From NCBI GenBank assembly GCA_048938445.1, contig JBHLME010000125.1, forward strand, positions 1 to 13,000: DNA of 13,000 nucleotides. The letters are read 5' to 3'. This stretch comes from Promethearchaeota archaeon (lineage in GTDB: Archaea; Asgardarchaeota; Lokiarchaeia; Sigyniarchaeales; SOKP01). The position numbers and the translations under genes were made by a program. The notes under the pieces were generated by a model. That model was not told the DNA's origin. It made no database searches and was given only the letters and a program-made list of their open reading frames with translations. Positions 1,731-13,000 of this stretch are shown here, piece after piece. The first letter of the stretch is position 1. Each line of letters opens with the position of its first letter.

Positions 1731-2453
1731 ATGTCTTACAAAATATTAGTAGATTTATCACATGGAGAAAAAGTAGAATTTCCTGAAGATTCATTAAGTG
1801 AAGATGATTATAGCGTTGAATATATAGATAAAAACGAAGGACCTATCAATTTTGATATTTTAGAAGATGCTGATATTTTATTTATTGGGAACATTCAACA
1901 TGAAAAAAATAATAAAAATGATAAATTTTCACCAGAGGAATTAACCGCAATTAAAAAATTTGTCGGAGAAGGTGGTGGTTTATTTTTAACATCGGGATCT
2001 GGAGGAGATAATGACATAGCTATGAAACAAGGATCCATCCGAGTTTTATATAAAATAACTGGGGTGAGACGATTTTGGAATGGAACAATCATAGAAGCAG
2101 GAACTAATTTTTTAGTTAATAGAGAAAATGTATTAGTTACTGAATTTTTTACCCATCCAATTATGGATGGTATTTCCGAATTGGTGTTTCCTAATTGCAC
2201 TTTTTTCACGCTTACTGAAGATGTTGATGACCTTATCAATACTTCTGAAAAAACTGAATTTGTATATGCAAATAATGAAAGGGGTAGTATTGGGCAAGTA
2301 CCAATATGCGTCGTGTCCAAATTTTATGATGGGAGGTGCGTTACTCTTGGTTCTTCTGACATCCTCCTAGAAGACAATGATTTTGGATTGGATGCGGGGG
2401 ATAATCTTAAATTCATAGAAAACATAGTTAAATGGCTCACTTTCGAGGAATAA
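1731..2453 (+). CDS. Stand-alone GIFT-like (GldG/IFT52, DUF4350-type, class I GATase-like fold) domain protein, acidic, no signal peptide
   Basis: ILVDLSHGE at the N-terminus, FSPEELTAIKKFVGEGGGLFL, THPIMDGISEL, and GRCVTLGSSDIL...DNLKFIENIVKWL at the C-terminus match the GIFT pattern. GGGAG lies immediately before the ATG. Confidence 0.7.
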   Translation: MSYKILVDLSHGEKVEFPEDSLSEDDYSVEYIDKNEGPINFDILEDADILFIGNIQHEKNNKNDKFSPEELTAIKKFVGEGGGLFLTSGSGGDNDIAMKQGSIRVLYKITGVRRFWNGTIIEAGTNFLVNRENVLVTEFFTHPIMDGISELVFPNCTFFTLTEDVDDLINTSEKTEFVYANNERGSIGQVPICVVSKFYDGRCVTLGSSDILLEDNDFGLDAGDNLKFIENIVKWLTFEE

Positions 2454-3688: not shown

Positions 3689-4795
3689 ATGACACCTACA
3701 TTAGAAGAAGTAAAGGGTTTAGGCAATAAAATTTCAGTTATCAAAGATGCAGGGATAGATTCTGTAGAAAAGTTAGCTGAGGCAAAAGTGGAAGATTTAA
3801 CAAATCTAAAAGGAATAGGACAAGCAACTGCGGAAAAATTGATCAATAATGCAAAAGAATTAATTCAAGAAGTAGATGTTTCTGGAGAAAAAACAACTAA
3901 TAAAAAATCTGAAGAGCCGATAGATGATAAAAAAGTTCAAGAAGAATTAAAGAAATTAGAACAAAAGAAAAAATCTCTTCAAGGGAAAAGAGTCGAAAAG
4001 GGTGATTTTATTCTAGTAAAAATAACTGCAAAAACTCAGAAGGGCAAAATATTTCGAGTATCTTCAGAAGAAGACGCAAGAAAAGCGGGGATTTACAATG
4101 AAGAAAATGCAAAACGAGGATATTATGAACCTGACTTTGTAATTGTAGGAAAACCCGGTTTTTTAAACGAGGGACTTACTGAAACCATTGAAAATATGAA
4201 CTTTTTTGAAAAAAAATCTGTAAGGATTCCTCCTAATAAAGCTTTTGGAAAACGAGATCCAAGTAAAATTGAAAGAATAGGAATTGCTAAATTCAGGAAG
4301 TTAAATGAGGGTAAAAATCCCGAGTTTGGACAAGAATTTGTTAAGAAAGGAACTGGTCAAAGAGGAACAGTAACAAATATAATGCAAGGAAAAGTCATCA
4401 TAGATTATAATCACCCTTTAGCAGGGCAAACTATTGATTATAACTTAGAAATTATTGATAAGATCGAAAATTTTAATGATAAAATCAAATATTTTATGTT
4501 TAATAAAGGGATACCTAAAGATAATGTCGAGGATTTTAAGATTAATTATGATAAAAGTGATAAATCACTAGAGATCATCATACCTAAAATGTTCCTGTTT
4601 CAAGATCTTACTTATATAAAATTTGGTCTTGCAATGGACTTGCAAACCAACATGACTGATGATGTAGATGATGTCAAGTTCATTGAGATTTTTGAAAAAA
4701 TGCCAATTCCAACAACACCAGTAGATTCGGTAATGCAAAAAGTTGAAGACTATAATAAAGAACATCATCATGAGCATGATCATGACAATGATTAA
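3689..4795 (+). CDS. Archaeal long-type FKBP peptidyl-prolyl isomerase (SlyD/FKBP26-like) with N-terminal helix-hairpin-helix domain and His-rich tail
   Basis: FKBP motifs VEKGDFILV, IPPNKAFGKRD and IDYNHPLAGQTIDYNLEI, followed by a C-terminal domain. The N-terminus has LEEVKGLG...LTNLKGIGQATAEKL (tandem HhH), and the protein ends EHHHEHDHDND. Confidence 0.88.
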   Translation: MTPTLEEVKGLGNKISVIKDAGIDSVEKLAEAKVEDLTNLKGIGQATAEKLINNAKELIQEVDVSGEKTTNKKSEEPIDDKKVQEELKKLEQKKKSLQGKRVEKGDFILVKITAKTQKGKIFRVSSEEDARKAGIYNEENAKRGYYEPDFVIVGKPGFLNEGLTETIENMNFFEKKSVRIPPNKAFGKRDPSKIERIGIAKFRKLNEGKNPEFGQEFVKKGTGQRGTVTNIMQGKVIIDYNHPLAGQTIDYNLEIIDKIENFNDKIKYFMFNKGIPKDNVEDFKINYDKSDKSLEIIIPKMFLFQDLTYIKFGLAMDLQTNMTDDVDDVKFIEIFEKMPIPTTPVDSVMQKVEDYNKEHHHEHDHDND

Positions 4796-4843: not shown

Positions 4844-5818
4844 TTAAAATTTAGAGATTAATTCTTTTTTCTTCTCTTTTTCCCTCTTATATTCAATTTT
4901 TTTTCTTTTATATATAGCATGTTTTGCATGAAATTGTTCTTTTCTTTTTAGTGATTTCTTTTTTCGTTTTAAAAATTCTTCTTTAGCTTTTTTATATTCT
5001 TTTTTCGCTTTTTTATACTCTTTCTTTGTTAATTTATATTTTTTATATTTTTTTTTTATTTCTTGTCTCAAGTTTTTCCTAAGTTTATGAATTCCCATAC
5101 TCCGTAGTTGTTTTTTAAATTGTTCTAATGATTCAAATTTAATAACTATCATTCCCAATTCCCTCGCAGGAATGAGATTACTCAGTTTATCATCAATAAA
5201 AACACATCTATTGGGTTTTGTATCTAAATTTTGTAGAACATGCTTATATTTTTCGAGATCTGGTTTGAAATACCCTATCTCATTTGATAAAAACACGTGA
5301 TCAAAAATCTCAAAAAATCCCCTAAGTTCATTTGATTTCGCATGAATATCATATGTATTTGACATTAGACTCACAATATATCCTGCCCCATGCAATCTCT
5401 GAATTATTTCTTCCATTTCAGAAGATAATTTAGCTAATTTGGAATATAAATTAAACCAAATTTCTAAATAATAATCAATATTAACTTTTTTTGGTGGTAA
5501 GGATCCATTTTTTTTTTGATATGGATAGTAATACTTATCCAACAACTTTTCTAAGAATTCTCGAGAATCAATAATCCCTGCTACGGTTTGCCTACGCAAT
5601 TTTTTGATAAATAATGATTCCTCCCTACGTGGGATTCTTATTTTTAAATCTGATTCAATAATACTAAATAGATTCTTTAAAACGAAAGTTTTTTCAACTA
5701 ATACTCCACCAAAATCAAATATGAAATGTTTTATCTTATATAATTTAACCTTTTGCTTTCTTAAAACGGGAGGATTATTTAACAATTCTAAGTCAATTAT
5801 TTCCTTTTTTTTGCTCAT
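4844..5818 (-). CDS. HAD-superfamily phosphatase (subfamily IA, YihX-like) with Lys-rich C-terminal extension
   Basis: Motif I FIFDFGGVL, motif II LMSNT, motif III KPD and motif IV FIDD. The last 81 aa are highly basic. The start overlaps the upstream ATP-grasp gene by 26 nt. Confidence 0.88.
   Translation of the reverse strand: MSKKKEIIDLELLNNPPVLRKQKVKLYKIKHFIFDFGGVLVEKTFVLKNLFSIIESDLKIRIPRREESLFIKKLRRQTVAGIIDSREFLEKLLDKYYYPYQKKNGSLPPKKVNIDYYLEIWFNLYSKLAKLSSEMEEIIQRLHGAGYIVSLMSNTYDIHAKSNELRGFFEIFDHVFLSNEIGYFKPDLEKYKHVLQNLDTKPNRCVFIDDKLSNLIPARELGMIVIKFESLEQFKKQLRSMGIHKLRKNLRQEIKKKYKKYKLTKKEYKKAKKEYKKAKEEFLKRKKKSLKRKEQFHAKHAIYKRKKIEYKREKEKKKELISKF
4986..5027. repeat. Imperfect 21-bp tandem repeat (2 copies) encoding KKEYKKA heptads in the HAD tail
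   Basis: gcttttttatattcttttttc followed by gcttttttatactctttcttt. The protein reads TKKEYKKAKKEYKKAKEEF. Confidence 0.6.
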
Positions 5819-6614
5819 ATTTCTTTATTTCATTTTTGTTTAGATATTTTACTTGATTTAAAATAATATCACAAATTTTGGGACATGGATCATCTCCTTG
5901 TTTCCAGTTAGTGAATTCTGGAAAATTACCCGTATCTACAACTAATATTTGGCCTGTAGAATCTTCTTTAATGACATCTAAATGGCCAAATGAGATATGA
6001 TGACATCTTTTCCATTTTTTAACAATGTCTTTTATTTCTTCTGTAGGAGTAATTTCTTTCATTTTTACATGTTCATTGCTCAAAGGAGGCTTTTCAGAAA
6101 CCGAGATTTCATTTCCTATAAAATAAATGATATAATGAGTCCCTTTAATTTCATGTTCATAATATATAACACTATTATCTACAGAATTTAAATCTTGAAT
6201 GGATCTAATTATTTTAACGTCTTTACTTCCAGAATCCATTAATGACTTCGAAACGATAGGAAAGTCGCTCTCTTTGAGATTTTTTTTTAACATCTCTACC
6301 GAGGATACGTAAAATTCTGGAGATTTTAAACCTGCTTGTTGAATTAAATAATGAGCGTCAATTCTATATTTATGCTTAAAAGTAAGATAAGGATCTGGAT
6401 ATATTGGTATATTATTTTCCTTTATGAAGTATCCTGCATATAAATAAATGAGTTGTTTTGATTTTAAAATAAAAAAATCATGTTTTAACAAATCATCATT
6501 AATACATAAATCGTTTGAGGTATAGATCCTAACTTCATGACCTAAATCATTATAATATTGTTTAATTCTTCCAGATAATGATTTTGTTCGTTTTGATAGA
6601 ATTCCTATATCCAT
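5793..6614 (-). CDS. ATP-grasp protein, divergent ITPK1-like paralog (degenerate motifs)
   Basis: AGLKSPEF, FPIVSKSLMDSGSKDVKII, GHLDVI and LVVDTGNFPEF. The ATP-grasp fold is clear, but the specific function is uncertain. Confidence 0.72.
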   Translation of the reverse strand: MDIGILSKRTKSLSGRIKQYYNDLGHEVRIYTSNDLCINDDLLKHDFFILKSKQLIYLYAGYFIKENNIPIYPDPYLTFKHKYRIDAHYLIQQAGLKSPEFYVSSVEMLKKNLKESDFPIVSKSLMDSGSKDVKIIRSIQDLNSVDNSVIYYEHEIKGTHYIIYFIGNEISVSEKPPLSNEHVKMKEITPTEEIKDIVKKWKRCHHISFGHLDVIKEDSTGQILVVDTGNFPEFTNWKQGDDPCPKICDIILNQVKYLNKNEIKKYEQKKGNN

Positions 6615-6627
6615 TTTTTATTACTAC

Positions 6628-7437
6628 TCATTTTTTAGCTTTTGATATGAGATAATCTCCAACAATTTTAGGTCCATTTTCCATATAATTAAAATTTGGA
6701 GAGGAATTAATATCTGTCAAGAAAAATTTACCTTCCTTTGATTTAAGAAAATCTACTGAGGTTATTTTTAAATCCAAAACATCCATTGCTTTAAATACTA
6801 ATTCTCCGATTTCAGGGATCTCCACGATTTTTCTTCGGCTCTCCATTTTATTTGGATTTACCATTACAGGAATCTGCTTATAATAGAACAATTCCTCTCC
6901 AACACCATATATTTTGTATTCCCATTTACTTTTGATAAATTCTTGATAAAAAAAATAATGAGAAAAAAAAATTTTTTCCTTTATTGCTCTCCTATCCATT
7001 ACATGCAAAAATCCATTCTCTTTCTTTATTTCAGGTTCAAAACTATAATTTTTTTGGTCTATAATATTTTTAGAAATATAATCTTTAAAATTAGGCGGAA
7101 TTTTTTCTGGATTTAAAGTGAAATGTGGAACAGGAATGCCTGCCTTTTGTAATAATGTAGAATTGATGAATCTGTGTAAAGCTGTCCATATTCCTTTATA
7201 AGAATTGATAACTGGAATAGAAGTTTCATTTTCTAGTATTTTTACCATCGCTAAAATAATATCTCCTTTAGCTTTGACAAAAAACAGATTTTCATCGTAT
7301 TTTAATTTAGAATGGTTTAGAAGATATTCTTCTTCGATATAAAAACTTAATTTTGCCTTTGTTCTCAAATATTTAATAAGTTCAGAACTCTTTCGTTCCA
7401 AATGGTATTTATCGGTTATTATTCCGAGATTTATCAA
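6628..7437 (-). CDS. ATP-grasp protein, ITPK1-like/RimK-like (TTG start)
   Basis: IPVINS, AGIPVP, YQEFI...EYKIYGVG, ITSVDFL and FLTDINSSPNF. Lies 13 nt upstream of the next minus-strand gene, consistent with an operon. Confidence 0.78.
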   Translation of the reverse strand: MINLGIITDKYHLERKSSELIKYLRTKAKLSFYIEEEYLLNHSKLKYDENLFFVKAKGDIILAMVKILENETSIPVINSYKGIWTALHRFINSTLLQKAGIPVPHFTLNPEKIPPNFKDYISKNIIDQKNYSFEPEIKKENGFLHVMDRRAIKEKIFFSHYFFYQEFIKSKWEYKIYGVGEELFYYKQIPVMVNPNKMESRRKIVEIPEIGELVFKAMDVLDLKITSVDFLKSKEGKFFLTDINSSPNFNYMENGPKIVGDYLISKAKK

Positions 7438-7684
7438 TTAGATATTCATCCTTAGCTATATATATGAACAATCGAATTATTATACTAATATTAAATACAT
7501 ACACATTATCTCATTTAAATTCAATTATAATGAATAATAGATGTGTAATTAACTTCAGTTTTCAGAAGTCTTAATAAGTCCAAAAAAGTGAATTATTTTG
7601 CTATAGTACAATTATTAGTCCTAAGGAATAGATTTATATATTTTACCTTATATATAAAAAGACAATAGATTTGAGGATTTTTCG
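7438..7684. promoter_or_regulatory. Divergent promoter region between ATP-grasp genes
   Basis: 247-nt noncoding gap between divergent starts. TATA-like TTTATATA at 7633-7640 and TTATATATAAAA near 7648-7659, with SD-like GAGGA at 7673-7677. Confidence 0.5.
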
Positions 7685-8590
7685 ATGCTAAAAAAGATAT
7701 GGATTGGAGCCATATGCAACCGTGACATGGAATTATTCAACCAAATCATTAAATTTACAAAGATTAATTATCCTAATAGAATATCCATTGTATCATTATT
7801 AAAAAAAGATGGAAAGTTTAGTACAAAATACTTTAAAAAGAAAATTAAAAAATATCCTATTTCTTTTCTTATATTAAAACTCTATTCTGAACCATCAAAT
7901 CAAATTATCTATAATGCAATTAAAACTTACGCCCCAAATATTCCTATATTAAATAGTTTAAGATCAGTGTCTATATGTGAAAGTAGAAATGAGACATTTA
8001 AATTTATTGAGAGAAATTGTAAGAAATTAAATATACCAAAAAATTTTTATACAATTAAAGATGCCTATGATGCTTGTAGTCAAGGAATACCAATCATTGT
8101 TAAATTAGACATTCATAATGCTCCACATATATCAAAGTATGATAGAATATTAGGGATCGCAAAAACTCCGAAAGAGCTAATGAATTTGATTAACAATTAC
8201 GCTCCAAAAAAATTATTTTTTCAAGAATATTTAGGAAAATTCGATATTGTCTATAAAATGTATATTATTGACAAATTTACCGTTAATATAAGATCTCATA
8301 ATCGTTTAAGAGAGCATAAATTAACACAATTAGAACTAATAGATATTAGAGTTCCTATTAATAAACTATTAAAGAGAAGAATTAAACAAATTGGCAGAAA
8401 ACTTGGAATGGTTTTATATGGTGTTGATTATATAATAACTGAAGATAATAATGCATATATTGTAGATATAAATGATTTCCCTAGTTTTAAAAACATTCCT
8501 GAAGCAGTTAGTTTAATTTCAGATTATTTATATAATCGACTATATTCTCTGCAACTATTATCTAAAATACCAATCAAAATAAAAGGATAA
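7685..8590 (+). CDS. ATP-grasp protein, inositol phosphate kinase ITPK1-like
   Basis: FLILKL, PILNS...CESR, IPIIVK, FQEYL...VYKMYII, LGMVLYGVDYI and YIVDINDFPSF, the last resembling the recalled ITPK1 IDINxFPGY signature. Confidence 0.8.
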   Translation: MLKKIWIGAICNRDMELFNQIIKFTKINYPNRISIVSLLKKDGKFSTKYFKKKIKKYPISFLILKLYSEPSNQIIYNAIKTYAPNIPILNSLRSVSICESRNETFKFIERNCKKLNIPKNFYTIKDAYDACSQGIPIIVKLDIHNAPHISKYDRILGIAKTPKELMNLINNYAPKKLFFQEYLGKFDIVYKMYIIDKFTVNIRSHNRLREHKLTQLELIDIRVPINKLLKRRIKQIGRKLGMVLYGVDYIITEDNNAYIVDINDFPSFKNIPEAVSLISDYLYNRLYSLQLLSKIPIKIKG

Positions 8591-8612
8591 TAGTTAAAAT
8601 ATCTAATTAAAT

Positions 8613-9707
8613 TCATCTTTCTCTTTTACCTTCAATGAATTCTACAAGATATCTTTTAGCAATAAAATCTTGTAATTGTTGTGGCGGATGTTTCATAAAA
8701 AATGAACAAGCTGATTGAAGTACTCCTCCTATTTTTCTATCCCGTGCGATTTTAGATATTCTAATGCAATCAGCGATAATTCCTGCGGAATTATTTCCAT
8801 CTTCTACAAACATAGTAAGGTCTATCCTCACAGGAGCTCCACCAAAAATTCTCCCTTCTAATCTCATATAAGCTTCTTTTTGATTTTTTAAAAATGGGAT
8901 GTAATCTACAGCAGAAATCTGGCACTCTACGGTATCTTTATTTTGAAGTTTAGCTATCACGGATTCGGTCTTTGACTGTCGTTTTCCTTCTTCATATACT
9001 AAAGTCCCATCAGATCTGGGTGTCATTAAATTACAAAAATCAGAACACCCGCCCCAATCTAGCTGAATTGTTCTGTCTAATATTGCACCTCTCATTGGAA
9101 ATAAATTTGCTAATGAACGATGAATTATTGTTGCTCCTATTTGGGATTTAACATCATCTCCTATAATAGACAAACCTAATTCTGTTGCTTTTTTCTCTAT
9201 TTCTGGATCTTTAGCAACATTTGAAGGCATTCCACATATGACACACGCACCTGCTTCAAGTGCGATATGGGCATAATACTTTACAGCTTCATGACATCCT
9301 GTAGGTAGTAATATTACTGCAACATCTACATTTTTTGCCTTCATTTCGTTAAGAATATCTGCAGGGCCATTATTTTCATTAACAGGTATGATATGTTTAA
9401 TATTACTATTAAGGCCATCCAATATTGGACCTTTAATGACTGGAGCATTCAAAATGTTTGGAGAAAATAATTTTTTATTACAATTAGGATCTTCAAATAT
9501 TGCTTCACTCAAGTCTTTACCTACTTTATTTGAGTTGACATCAATGCCTAACACAAAATTGATATCGTTGATGCTATATTGGGTAATTTCTGGTAATAAC
9601 CCGATAATTCTCTCTGGATTTTGTTTATAATTCTCGACTCCTTGGACAAGAGCAGAGCATACATCTCCTACTCCTATTACACATGTATTAATTTTGCTCA
9701 TAGACAT
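8613..9707 (-). CDS. ino1: myo-inositol-1-phosphate (inositol-3-phosphate) synthase, archaeal/actinobacterial type
   Basis: Rossmann motif VIGVG, DVNSNKVGKDLSEAIF, IIGDDVKSQIGAT, SKT, DYIPFL..QKEAY, FGGAP, ED..NSAG and FMKHPP. The start could be 9707 or 9701. Confidence 0.93.
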   Translation of the reverse strand: MSMSKINTCVIGVGDVCSALVQGVENYKQNPERIIGLLPEITQYSINDINFVLGIDVNSNKVGKDLSEAIFEDPNCNKKLFSPNILNAPVIKGPILDGLNSNIKHIIPVNENNGPADILNEMKAKNVDVAVILLPTGCHEAVKYYAHIALEAGACVICGMPSNVAKDPEIEKKATELGLSIIGDDVKSQIGATIIHRSLANLFPMRGAILDRTIQLDWGGCSDFCNLMTPRSDGTLVYEEGKRQSKTESVIAKLQNKDTVECQISAVDYIPFLKNQKEAYMRLEGRIFGGAPVRIDLTMFVEDGNNSAGIIADCIRISKIARDRKIGGVLQSACSFFMKHPPQQLQDFIAKRYLVEFIEGKRER

Positions 9708-9895
9708 TAAAATTAATTACTAATTAATATTTGTTTATATTAAATTATCATATTTAAATAATTTTAAATCTGAAATAAAACACTATTCAACCGTAATTTT
9801 TCAAATAATTAATTATAAAAAAAATTAAGTTCATATTGATTTATTAGAAAATAAATCAATTGTTATTTTAAGATAGTATCAAAATAAGAATCACA
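9708..9895. promoter_or_regulatory. Divergent promoter region shared by ino1 and the ITPK1-like kinase
   Basis: 188-nt extremely AT-rich gap between head-to-head starts, with several TATA-like hexamers that cannot be individually assigned. Confidence 0.45.
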
Positions 9896-10780
9896 ATGAA
9901 AGTTATTTTTTCTGCTAAAAAAGAACATGATGTATTTAAAAAAGTAATTAATCAATTAAGTAATATTAAAAATCTTGAATGTTTTTTTCATGATCCTGTA
10001 AATGAATTTTTTAATTTAGAAGAAATTCACCAATTTCTGAAAGATATTGATTATATTATAGTAAAAGTAGCAAGTGAAGGATCTATTGACTTGCTTCATT
10101 TTGCAAAGTTATATAATATCCCAACCTTACATGATTTAAATGCTGTGTTAACGTGTATGAATAAAATTGCTCTAGATGGTGCTTTAAGAAAGATCTTTAA
10201 AATTCATTCTAATATGTTATCAAATTTCTCATTACCATTATCATGGAATCAAAATGTATTAGATATTATCAAATTTAAAAAATGGGCAGAAAATAAATTA
10301 CCAATTGTTATAAAAAGCCATAATCAACATGATAAATATAGACGCTTTAACTTTCTCGCAAAAAATATTGAAGAAATCGATCAATTTTGTATAAGGTATA
10401 AAGAATTCTTATATTATGATGTTTACATTCAAAAATTCATTGAATGTGATGGGATTGAAAGAAAAATTTATGTCATCGGTGATAAAATCTTTGGAATTAA
10501 AAGGGAGAATCCCATTTATCTACATATGAGAGAAAGACCCGATAATATTGATGTAAATCAAATAAAAAGGGAACCTTATAATGTTTCTGAAGAGATCAAA
10601 AAGTTAGCAAAAATATTATCAAAAGAATTACGTCTAAAGGTTTTTGGTTTTGATTTAATAAAAAGTATCGATAATGAACAATATTATTTTATGGATTTAA
10701 ATGATTTTCCGGGATTTAGAGGGATAGATAATATTGAAGATGTTTTTGTGGAATTCTTCAAATCATACTTAAATCTTTAG
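9896..10780 (+). CDS. ATP-grasp protein, inositol phosphate kinase ITPK1-like (best match of the four)
   Basis: DYIIVKV, LPIVIKSH, YIQKFIECDGIERKIYVIG...KR, LRLKVFGFDLI and YYFMDLNDFPGF parallel recalled ITPK1 segments (DVIIHKL, FPxIxK, QxFxNH..LxKVxVVG, LFGxDxI, IDINxFPGY). Confidence 0.83.
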   Translation: MKVIFSAKKEHDVFKKVINQLSNIKNLECFFHDPVNEFFNLEEIHQFLKDIDYIIVKVASEGSIDLLHFAKLYNIPTLHDLNAVLTCMNKIALDGALRKIFKIHSNMLSNFSLPLSWNQNVLDIIKFKKWAENKLPIVIKSHNQHDKYRRFNFLAKNIEEIDQFCIRYKEFLYYDVYIQKFIECDGIERKIYVIGDKIFGIKRENPIYLHMRERPDNIDVNQIKREPYNVSEEIKKLAKILSKELRLKVFGFDLIKSIDNEQYYFMDLNDFPGFRGIDNIEDVFVEFFKSYLNL

Positions 10781-11631
10781 ACCATTGTTCCAATTATTAT
10801 GAATGGAACAATAACGATAAATGATATAATTCCATAAACAATGCAGAAATATCCAAATTGAATTTTTTTAGCGATTAGTAACAAGAACTCGATAGATAAG
10901 TAACCTACACAGAAACTTATAATAGTCGCTATTAAAATAGTAAGTGGATCCAAGATTGCTAACTCCTCAGAAATAATTCCTGTAATAATTTTAAGACCAA
11001 TTGATCCAAAAACCACGGGAACTGACATTAAAAAACTTAATTTTAATGCATTATCTTTTTCATAATTTTTGTAAAGAAGAGTCGATATGGTGATTCCTGA
11101 TCGAGAGATTCCTGGTAATATTGAAATACCTTGTATGAGTCCAGATAAGAAGCTATCTTTATTCAAAACTTTATTATCAATGTTTTCAATTGATTTTTCA
11201 CCAGAAGATTTACCTTGTTTTAGCAAGATTATTCCTGTTATTATTAAAAATCCACCAATGATTAAAGTGATAAGATCTCCATGGATTGCTAAATAACCCG
11301 TAATGAGAAACTCAAATAAGAAATATAAAGGAATAGCAGTAATGGCCGTACCTATTGTTGCGATTAACACCCAATTCCTCTTTTTTTTATCTAAATATTC
11401 AAATTCAAACGTGTTTGGAAAGAAACTTGTTATCATTTTCATGTATTCCTTCCTAAATTTAATTAAAACGACTAAAGCTGTTCCTAAATGGAGCCATATA
11501 GCGAGAGAATAAGATTCTTGGGGACTTAGACCAAATAAATTCAATGAGACATTAAAAACTTGTCCCGATGAAGATATCGGAAACCATTCGAATAATCCCT
11601 GTAATATTGCCAGTATAATAATATCAATCAT
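10777..11631 (-). CDS. uppP: Undecaprenyl/polyprenyl-diphosphate phosphatase (BacA/UppP family)
   Basis: LQGLFEWFPISSSGQ, LHLGT, ILPGISRSGITI and SFLMSVP, with multiple TM segments. Confidence 0.92.
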   Translation of the reverse strand: MIDIIILAILQGLFEWFPISSSGQVFNVSLNLFGLSPQESYSLAIWLHLGTALVVLIKFRKEYMKMITSFFPNTFEFEYLDKKKRNWVLIATIGTAITAIPLYFLFEFLITGYLAIHGDLITLIIGGFLIITGIILLKQGKSSGEKSIENIDNKVLNKDSFLSGLIQGISILPGISRSGITISTLLYKNYEKDNALKLSFLMSVPVVFGSIGLKIITGIISEELAILDPLTILIATIISFCVGYLSIEFLLLIAKKIQFGYFCIVYGIISFIVIVPFIIIGTMV

Positions 11632-11912: not shown

Positions 11913-13000
11913 ATGGCGAAAAAGCAAAAAAGTAAAATTGAGCCTTTTTTAAAATTTTTAGATAAAACAGTTGTTAAAAAAGTCGGGAATCCGTTAAAAA
12001 ATGTTGATGATTTTTTAAAATTACCCGCTTTAGCTTTTAATTTTTTGAAAGATGTTGATGTTAAACTCATACATGACTTATTCAATGTTTCTCAAATTTA
12101 TGAATTTCAGATATTAGATCAAGAGTCTCCGTTTGAAAGGTTGTATAAATCAGACCCGAAAAAAAAAGCAAAAATCGAAGAAGTCCTTCTCATTGACACT
12201 GAAATAGAAGAAAAGATCAAAAAAGCTACAATAATAAGTATTATTGCTGAACGGATCAGAAAAGATTCTGTAGTTGTTGAAAGAAAAGAACAAAAAGTTA
12301 TTGTTGTTGGTCTAAGCAATGCAGGAAAAACAACTATACTCTCGAAATTTGGTGGTCAATTGGGAATTAAAGACCTCACCAAATTAAAACCAACTAAAGG
12401 TGTTGAGAGAAAAGAAGTAAATACAAAAAACTTAAATTTGAATATTTGGGACTTTGGTGGTCAATTAGAATATCGCAACCGTTATTTACGAGAACCAGAA
12501 AAATATTTTTTTCGCGTAGATTTAGTTATATATGTTATAGATGTCCAAGATCAAGAGAATTTTGAAGAGAGTTTAGAATATTTTGAATCTATTTTAGATT
12601 ATCTTATAAGAATTGAAGAATATCCATATATCTTAATTTTTCTTCATAAATTTGACCCTGATTTAAAGGAAGATAATGAGATATTGTTAAATGTTGAATA
12701 TCTTAAGGATGAAATTAAAAATATTTTCAAAACCAAAAAGAAGCTCGATTATGAAATATATTTAAGTTCAATCTATTCGATAATTGCTAAAGAACCTAAA
12801 TTTGCGCAATATCTCAAGAATACCATGGAAAAAACTGCTACATTAGAAGATACGTCTATAACTAAAATAGAGGGAATTGCCTCAATTTTAGAAAATACCA
12901 TGAATGGTTTAATTAATTTATCTGAGACTGTAATGATCCAATTAGAGGAAATAAATAATCGTCTTTTAGCTTTAGAAAATCGAAAGAAGCATGCTGGCCG
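11913..13000 (+). CDS. Ras-superfamily small GTPase (Arf/Rag-like) with N-terminal extension and C-terminal helical region, partial (runs off the window)
   Basis: Translated by hand from ATG 11913 (MAKKQKSKIEPF...), open to the window end. G1 GLSNAGKT at 12309, G2 KPTKG, G3 WDFGGQ at 12447, G4 HKFD at 12645 and G5-like SSIY at 12765. Confidence 0.92.
   Translation, partial: MAKKQKSKIEPFLKFLDKTVVKKVGNPLKNVDDFLKLPALAFNFLKDVDVKLIHDLFNVSQIYEFQILDQESPFERLYKSDPKKKAKIEEVLLIDTEIEEKIKKATIISIIAERIRKDSVVVERKEQKVIVVGLSNAGKTTILSKFGGQLGIKDLTKLKPTKGVERKEVNTKNLNLNIWDFGGQLEYRNRYLREPEKYFFRVDLVIYVIDVQDQENFEESLEYFESILDYLIRIEEYPYILIFLHKFDPDLKEDNEILLNVEYLKDEIKNIFKTKKKLDYEIYLSSIYSIIAKEPKFAQYLKNTMEKTATLEDTSITKIEGIASILENTMNGLINLSETVMIQLEEINNRLLALENRKKHAG

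Follow-up and report, generated by a model that had tools for sequence, protein, structure and literature searches.

Inositol polyphosphates have long been regarded as a hallmark of eukaryotes. The locus considered here is a cluster of six contiguous genes, encoding a myo-inositol-3-phosphate synthase (MIPS), four ATP-grasp paralogs (A, B, C and D) and a HAD-superfamily hydrolase, at positions 4844-10780 of a 13,000-nucleotide stretch of DNA from a Promethearchaeota archaeon. This stretch, hereafter the window, is contig C61:1-13000 of genome G000 (4.63 Mb in 256 contigs, 96.5% complete, 8.2% contamination). The closest described systems are the Lokiarchaeum clusters of Desfougeres et al. 2019 (PNAS, PMC6900528), whose main text reports four ITPK1 homologs, LcIKA-D, that flank two IPS genes as two pairs. 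According to the same text, LcIKC partly restores IP6 in plc1-delta yeast, human ITPK1 phosphorylates inositol-3-phosphate (Ins3P), and a route is proposed that leads from glucose-6-phosphate through Ins3P to higher inositol phosphates (InsPs). The presence of ITPK1 homologs beside MIPS in Lokiarchaeum is the basis for proposing that a soluble route of this kind predates eukaryotes.

The clustering of ITPK1 homologs with MIPS is therefore already known, having been published in 2019, and the suggestion of an earlier reading of the window from its sequence alone (the sequence-only reading) that the physical grouping of these genes as a pathway might be undescribed is superseded by that paper. 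As the window is another instance of the published locus, it adds no new principle. In their matching passages, PMC8024741, PMC12077091 and bioRxiv 10.64898/2026.05.08.723234 merely cite the 2019 finding, and those of PMC7278568 are unrelated to the cluster. A full-text literature search, with figures and supplements outside its reach, found the cluster described nowhere else, and no report of a HAD gene or of extra ATP-grasp genes within it. The main text of PMC6900528 mentions neither a HAD protein nor accessory ATP-grasp proteins, while its Fig. 2C and SI Fig. S1/S2 may already show A, B or HAD. The accessory module, comprising the A-B pair, the HAD hydrolase with its polybasic tail and a dedicated MIPS, may be undescribed.

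Organisation of the locus and proposed pathway

The present cluster is probably a Promethearchaeota (Lokiarchaeum-type) form of the ITPK1-MIPS locus that has been published as a lipid-independent route of inositol phosphate synthesis, extended by a B-A-HAD accessory unit. As in the Lokiarchaeum LcIKA-D/IPS clusters, ITPK1 homologs flank the MIPS gene; there, however, two kinase pairs surround two IPS genes, whereas the present cluster holds one MIPS, two ITPK-family genes, two further ATP-grasp genes and one HAD. Judging from its family membership, the MIPS would convert glucose-6-phosphate to Ins3P, and C and D would phosphorylate this product stepwise to higher InsPs, a role suggested by their homology, by published evidence that human and plant ITPK1 act on Ins3P and by the partial rescue of IP6 in yeast by LcIKC. 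Our best guess for B, with A as its partner subunit, is that it may add or transfer a further phosphate, and the HAD hydrolase may remove one. All of these enzymatic steps are predictions from sequence.

The six genes were confirmed by open reading frame (ORF) calling, translation and Pfam matches, in agreement with the sequence-only reading, which had described ino1 (MIPS) as flanked by ATP-grasp paralogs and a HAD hydrolase. They form four transcription units (B-A-HAD, C, MIPS and D) in two divergent pairs and not one operon. B, A and HAD are closely packed, with a gap of 13 bp between B and A and an overlap of 26 bp between the start of HAD and the end of A. AT-rich intergenic regions separate the divergent B-A-HAD unit from C (7438-7684) and MIPS from D (9708-9895); no element common to the two was seen in this 24% GC sequence, in a comparison made by eye only. 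The GC content of the window is approximately 24-33%. An apparent A-HAD fusion of 595 aa in locus L100 was discarded, as its translation contains an internal stop.

Candidate ITPK1-family kinases C and D

Paralogs C and D are assignable to the ITPK1 family, for which the gathering cut-off of PF05770 (Ins134_P3_kin; 23 bits) served as criterion. D (9896-10780, plus strand, 294 aa) is the most ITPK1-like of the four paralogs, scoring 51.7 bits against PF05770 versus 33.0 bits against the RimK family PF08443; the latter value also exceeds its cut-off of 21. C (7685-8590, plus strand, 301 aa), a putative ITPK1/ITPK4-family kinase, scores 32.7 bits against PF05770. The two are the only matches above this cut-off genome-wide, and no match was obtained in the control genomes (0/14). 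Profile searches against the PDB gave the same picture: the nine best matches of the D profile (18 orthologs) were all ITPK1 or ITPK4 (1.8e-12 to 1.8e-8), compared with 2.3e-4 for RimK, while the ten best matches of the C profile (8 orthologs) were all ITPKs (for example, ITPK4 7pup at 2e-6 and HsITPK1 at 1.4e-5), with neither LysX nor RimK among the 12 matches listed. C and D are also each other's best matches in comparisons between hidden Markov models (cross-HMM medians of 52 and 42 bits).

The eukaryotic ITPK1 and ITPK4 proteins of known structure (human 2q7d/2odt, maize 7tn5-8, potato 8oxe, Arabidopsis ITPK4 7pup and Entamoeba 1z2n) have PF05770, a D-x-N motif and a Lys in the central strand in common with both C and D, and the following Arg in common with D, whereas the matching position of C is Thr in 7/8 orthologs. 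Overall similarity is low, and significant alignment is confined mainly to the C-terminal 60-120 residues. Lys190, Arg203 and the D-L-N motif of D align with K198, R211 and D-I-N of ZmITPK1, and K190 and R203 probably correspond to K199 and R212 of human ITPK1, which are given as substrate-contacting residues in PMC6900528. In the 18 D orthologs K57, K190, R203, D253, D267 and N269 (the D267-L-N269 motif) are invariant, as are K191, D248 and D261-I-N263 in the eight C orthologs.

Two genuine RimK-family genes of the same genome (RimK1 and RimK2) served as reference for the contrast with RimK; they score 133 and 132 bits against PF08443 and have no PF05770 match at E<=0.001. In alignment A7 both carry E-V-N, have Arg in the central strand (DIRI/DIRV), which is followed by an R..N..G[AG] stretch, and have Arg in the N-domain strand as well. 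B, C and D instead carry D-x-N and a central-strand Lys, and all four paralogs carry Lys in the N-domain strand: the respective motifs are DLNDFPGF, RKIYVIG and IIVK in D, DINDFPSF, YKMYII and LILK in C, and DINSSPNF, YKIYGVG and FFVK in B, with FILK in the N-domain strand of A. Every motif quoted in the sequence-only reading is thus present in the translations, and the difference from RimK on which it relied holds for B, C and D at the three positions that it named.

Among proteins of the LCGC14 marine sediment metagenome, two of the D type and one of the C type, with 59-62% identity to the present D and C, bear the UniRef name 'Inositol 1,3,4-trisphos...' (Ins(1,3,4)P3 5/6-kinase-like); this fits, and does not prove, that the published LcIKs are of the C and D types. 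A search of representative proteins with the D profile returned 1599 matches at E<=1e-3, of which 123 also passed E<=1e-10 and 11 passed E<=1e-30.

ATP-grasp pair A and B

The expectation that all four paralogs would be ITPK1-like was borne out for C and D, which pass PF05770 and match ITPKs in the PDB, and failed for A (5793-6614, minus strand, 273 aa) and B (6628-7437, minus strand, 269 aa), which lie on the LysX/RimK side. A scores 22.0 bits against PF05770, just below the cut-off, and has no match to PF08443, while B has no PF05770 match at E<=1 and reaches 17.3 bits against PF08443, also below the cut-off. Scores against the RimK model TIGR00768 were 40.8 bits for D, 39.2 for B and 15.2 for A, compared with a cut-off of 143.4. 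Among orthologs (E<=0.01), ATP-grasp_3 was matched by 56/58 A proteins and RimK by 34/62 B proteins, with PF05770 matched by 9/58 and 8/62, respectively. The best PDB matches of the A profile (58 rows) were PurK (9.2e-6) and ArgX (3.6e-5), with HsITPK1 at 0.08, and those of the B profile (62 rows) were ArgX (1.2e-4) and LysX, both ahead of EhITPK1 (0.16); smaller profiles gave the same ranking. A and B are mutual best cross-HMM matches (medians of 36 and 27.5 bits). As the sequence-only reading had foreseen, 'RimK family' labels are found in databases, the NCBI name for B-type proteins being 'RimK family alpha-L-glutamate ligase'.

These matches raise the alternative that A and B act as carboxylate-amine ligases, like LysX, ArgX and RimK, and not as kinases, in which case the module would make an inositol-phosphate-derived conjugate, or modify a protein or cofactor, rather than produce a plain InsPn series. 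We regard this as unlikely, though it accounts for much of the evidence on A and B. In its favour, a maximum-likelihood tree separates {C, D} from {A, B, RimK1, RimK2} with support of 99/94 and groups {A, B, RimK} with 95/88; this tree has 40 rows, only two of them RimK and none from eukaryotic ITPK1, and the program issued a long-branch warning, which reduces its weight against a kinase role. The fold comparison points in the same direction. AlphaFold models of A and B (pLDDT 91.0 and 88.8) were compared using VIA-align, because Foldseek matched them to every ATP-grasp class at E 1e-12 to 1e-16 and did not discriminate; the comparison covers these two models, and fold alone does not define a family. 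LysX/ArgX/RimK ligases (3vpd, 3vpb, 5k2m and 7qys) were the best full-length matches of both models (Z 22-24). For A, the best entry was LysX/ArgX 5k2m_A (Z 24.0, root-mean-square deviation (rmsd) 2.6, 250 aligned residues), with RimK at Z 21.9 and no inositol kinase (ITPK1 or PPIP5K2) among the 50 entries listed. For B, it was LysX 3vpd_A (Z 23.6, rmsd 3.2, 255 aligned residues), with RimK at Z 22.5, PPIP5K2 at Z 21.6 and ZmITPK1 at Z 19.9.

Residue-level evidence argues the other way. B carries D-x-N and Lys where the ligases carry E-x-N and Arg, and K55, K175, D229, D242 and N244 (the D242-I-N244 motif) are invariant in its 62 orthologs, K175 being aligned through A7 only. Given this combination of a LysX-like fold with invariant kinase-type residues, B is a hybrid, with kinase-like catalytic positions on a ligase-like scaffold. 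A is the most divergent of the four paralogs: it lacks D-x-N and has D227-x-G229 followed by Asn (DTGN; D-P-G-S in the ortholog consensus) in its place, and its central strand (HYIIY) contains neither Lys nor Arg. It retains the ATP-binding Lys123, two acidic metal ligands and a Gly-rich loop (GSGSKGV), the last being a feature of classical ATP-grasp ligases, to which A is also similar in size. Neither A nor B has the R..N..G[AG] stretch of the genome's RimK genes. Further points against a ligase role are that the B profile matches the D profile with a probability of 98.6% (hhalign, E 7.6e-16), that the kinase PPIP5K2 lies within 2 Z units of LysX in the fold comparison of B, and that the cluster contains no amino-acid biosynthesis gene and, in its Pfam scan, no LysW-like carrier. 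In the Protein Atlas, the nearest clusters other than those of the queried proteins themselves are bacterial ATP-grasp clusters whose members often match both PF08443 and PF05770; the two models thus overlap in prokaryotes, and the comparison points to no function.

The kinase domain of PPIP5K2/Vip1/Asp1 (3t9b, 9gr8 and 8e1h), an ATP-grasp kinase that acts on inositol phosphates, is the second-best fold class for B (Z 21.0-21.6, 255-259 aligned residues) at a sequence identity of 13-15%. PF18086 (PPIP5K2_N) has no match in the genome, in a search that is uninformative as its controls were silent too.

Structure prediction supports a putative A-B heterodimer. The predicted complex reached an ipSAE of 0.88 versus 0.00 for the best control, with runs agreeing in at least 90% of contacts and a partner pLDDT of at least 85; custom alignments were used as input, and in the benchmark the mark was reached by 58/80 solved complexes and 2/110 mismatched pairs. 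The interface involves equivalent N-domain and linker segments of both chains and therefore resembles that of a homodimeric ATP-grasp dimer.

HAD hydrolase

The third member of the accessory unit (4844-5818, minus strand, 324 aa) is a HAD-superfamily hydrolase of the subfamily IA-like type, with 62.4 bits against PF00702 and 45.1 bits against PF13419. Its best NCBIfam matches, TIGR02247 (82.6 bits, cut-off 125) and PRK09456 (54.5 bits), are both below their cut-offs. These models represent HAD-IA phosphatases of the sEH-N-terminal/YihX kind (PRK09456 being glucose-1-phosphatase), and elements of HAD motifs I-IV are conserved in the cluster protein: FDFGGV (with the nucleophile Asp35), SNT, Lys185 and Asp208-Asp209 are at least 98% conserved (42/42 orthologs). 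A phosphohydrolase role is plausible and not established, any substrate would be a prediction, and that this protein is the pathway's own phosphatase, as the sequence-only reading proposed, is an inference. The cluster HAD departs from the usual phosphatases in having Gly at the position two residues after the nucleophile (D+2), a replacement presumably shared with E. coli YihX.

The catalytic core spans approximately residues 29-235 and is followed by a Lys/Arg-rich C-terminal tail of about 89 residues. In all 42 orthologs the last 87-96 residues contain 36-51% Lys plus Arg (46% here), and we know of no counterpart to this polybasic tail in families of the sEH-N-terminal/YihX kind. The tail is encoded at 4844-5110 and contains KKxYKK-like repeats. 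Such an extension is unusual among HAD hydrolases, and its ligand could be a polyanion, for example InsP6, polyphosphate or nucleic acid.

A more specific version of the inositol phosphate reading would have the five co-inherited genes (HAD, A, B, C and MIPS), together with D, make and turn over a particular highly phosphorylated inositol species, possibly with a phosphoanhydride bond, the A-B pair taking the part of a PPIP5K-like kinase and the HAD that of a phosphatase adapted to a good leaving group. We consider this distinctly improbable; if true, it would amount to a prokaryotic inositol (pyro)phosphate cycle run by enzymes that are not homologous to the eukaryotic set of IP6K, PPIP5K and DIPP.

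Dedicated MIPS paralog and other inositol genes

The MIPS gene (8613-9707, minus strand, 364 aa) scores 73.6 bits against PF01658 (cut-off 27) and 288 bits against TIGR03450, over positions 2-355 of 355, the latter being below the mycothiol-specific equivalog cut-off of 638. Two further MIPS-family genes lie in tandem on another contig (C76) and are 34% and 42% identical to the cluster gene. This low identity, together with the separate location, indicates that the cluster MIPS is a dedicated third copy, and its distribution among relatives (see below) shows that this paralog is co-inherited with A, B and C.

MIPS in archaea usually serves the synthesis of archaetidylinositol, di-myo-inositol phosphate and surface polymers, according to the main text of PMC6900528. 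It is therefore conceivable that the cluster MIPS feeds these ordinary uses and that the ATP-grasp genes are unrelated neighbours, particularly as the genome encodes two IMPase-family proteins and six CDP-alcohol phosphotransferases. We judge this highly unlikely. All of these genes lie outside the window, in which none of the 13/13 ORFs of at least 150 aa that were scanned is an IMPase, a CDP-alcohol phosphotransferase or a nucleotidyltransferase; the sequence-only reading was thus right that the usual partners of archaeal ino1 (IMPase, CDP-alcohol phosphotransferase and IPCT/DIPPS) are missing from the window, and IMPase, CDP-alcohol phosphotransferase and nucleotidyltransferase genes are found elsewhere in the genome. 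The separate MIPS pair on C76, beside a nucleotidyltransferase and a CDP-glycerol glycerophosphotransferase, also argues against such a use of the cluster copy, as does the restriction of window-type MIPS genes to genomes with A, B or C, where they always adjoin C.

The region around the tandem MIPS pair (C76:34537-36778; 7541-9782 of locus L123) contains, in addition to a MobA-like nucleotidyltransferase and the CDP-glycerol glycerophosphotransferase, three FkbM methyltransferases, an ATP sulfurylase and a type I phosphodiesterase. It looks like a surface-polymer or headgroup locus that uses inositol phosphate.

Conservation and co-inheritance

Conservation was assessed in two samples. The first comprised 40 GTDB relatives, 24 of them from the same family, in which 20 D loci were mapped by tblastn and ORF calling; the second comprised the best 80 of 128 D-encoding loci in public genome contigs and is biased towards D proteins of 54-64% identity, that is, the module-bearing clade. 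In the second sample, MIPS was found upstream of D in 71/80 loci, so that the nearest relatives preserve the linkage to ino1 put forward in the sequence-only reading. A, B, C and MIPS were all present in 50/50 loci in which the interval from the flanking FKBP gene to D was fully covered, and HAD was present in 40 of these 50. The distance between MIPS and D ranged from 152 to 9160 bp (median 1806 bp), and the gap often held unrelated genes, including a recurrent MFS transporter, a Zn-dependent dehydrogenase, a GH2 glycosidase, a URO-D-like protein and ORFs of 811-936 aa without a Pfam family. Examples of such cargo are L026 7315-12462 and L023 7844-12107.

In the first sample, D orthologs (E below 1e-60) were identified in 18/24 same-family genomes. 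MIPS and C stood beside D in eight loci (G005, G006, G013, G014, G018, G021, G023 and G024), while 7/15 informative loci (G008, G009, G012, G016, G019, G020 and G022) consisted of FKBP, 0-3 unrelated genes and D, without MIPS, A, B or C; UppP followed D in 5/7 of these. Of the remaining loci, three were cut too near D to judge and two held distant homologs in another family. A whole-genome search of the 24 same-family genomes found C in 11, B in 11, A in 12 and the window-type MIPS in 11, all within one set of 12 genomes, and the MIPS orthologs (75-90% identity) each lay beside C. Eight same-family genomes (86-100% complete) encode D and have no A, B, C or window-type MIPS, and in these either MIPS paralogs of 41-45% identity only or no MIPS at all was found. 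From this synteny and phyletic pattern it follows that the co-inherited unit is [HAD]-A-B-C-MIPS, with D separate from it. D predates the module, occurs more widely, is fixed next to UppP and is able to stand alone.

It is consequently quite possible, if somewhat doubtful, that D lies outside the functional module altogether, as an older independent ITPK-like gene fixed next to UppP, and that a HAD-A-B-C-MIPS block was inserted beside D. The seven D-only loci fit this explanation, as their D orthologs (42-52% identity) sit by FKBP in genomes whose MIPS genes, where found, are on other contigs, and so do the variable MIPS-D gap and the adjacency of D and UppP in 67/80 loci. Set against these points are the relationship of C and D as closest paralogs of each other, the presence of the module always beside D where both share a contig, and the published description, in the main text of PMC6900528, of an ITPK homolog on each side of IPS. 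Moreover, insertion beside D would be compatible with a common pathway.

The present survey extends the published picture in three ways: the arrangement persists throughout one clade as a stable, broadly conserved unit that is lacking in sister genera, where D alone is retained; its MIPS is a dedicated paralog; and A, B and HAD travel with it. The result is a defined set of six proteins for in vitro reconstitution.

Additional observations were made in more distant genomes. In another family of the same order, homologs of C (31% identity) and of B (36-38%) lie tail to tail in genome G026 (C13:23801-25373; 8703-10374 of L131), with no MIPS, A or HAD within the 18 kb examined, and the association of B with C may predate the module. 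In three closed single-contig genomes of the same order (G032, G033 and G038), no D was found at E<=1e-5 and no C, B or A at E<=1e-20, and their MIPS-family genes are only 35-42% identical to that of the window; these complete genomes may lack the module. A contig labelled 'Candidatus Nanopelagicaceae bacterium' (L080, DATKTW010000070.1) carries a complete Asgard-type cluster with the same flanking genes and is most likely mis-binned.

Points that weigh on the proposed pathway

The reading of the locus as an ITPK1-MIPS pathway with an accessory unit has to be set against several observations that count against it. A and B are not ITPK1-family proteins by any test run, and the paralogs' grouping with RimK/LysX, which the sequence-only reading had named as grounds for abandoning its proposal, applies to this pair and not to C and D. 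B is about equally far from D (cross-HMM median of 32.6 bits) and from the genome's RimK genes (28.5 bits). The favourable prediction for the A-B complex may just mirror the solved homodimers of LysX and RimK, given the likeness of its interface to theirs. The D+2 residue of the HAD is Gly37 in 42/42 orthologs, a position usually occupied in HAD phosphatases by a second Asp that acts as general acid, and the HAD gene is missing from 10/50 fully covered clusters. The D-only loci and genomes, and the unrelated cargo between MIPS and D, loosen the tie between D and the remaining genes. In addition, no IPK-family kinase was found in the genome, and the rescue of yeast by LcIKC was only partial (PMC6900528, main text).

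Flanking genes

The left flank of the cluster encodes a membrane protein, a proteasome subunit, a 240-aa ORF, a radical-SAM enzyme and a HhH-FKBP26-type protein. The last (3689-4795, plus strand) is an FKBP26-like peptidyl-prolyl isomerase with an N-terminal helix-hairpin-helix domain and a His/Asp-rich end, and is conserved in relatives, where it marks the left edge of the cluster. The 240-aa ORF (1731-2453, plus strand) encodes an acidic protein whose sole Pfam match is the IFT52 GIFT domain (26.1 bits, cut-off 27.2), and which many relatives keep (56-72% identity) in the same place, flanked by the proteasome subunit and the radical-SAM gene.

To the right, the cluster is followed by a UppP/BacA-type polyprenyl-diphosphate phosphatase (10777-11631, minus strand; PF02673, 166.8 bits), which is convergent with D, also adjoins it in genomes without the MIPS module and has been assigned no role in the pathway. 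Beyond it lies a small GTPase (11913-12998, plus strand, running off the window) that scores 91.0 bits against Gtr1/RagA and 87.5 bits against Arf and has an N-terminal extension of approximately 120 residues. This Gtr1/RagA/Arf-like protein is eukaryote-like and typical of Asgard archaea, and its position is conserved only in G005 among the loci examined.

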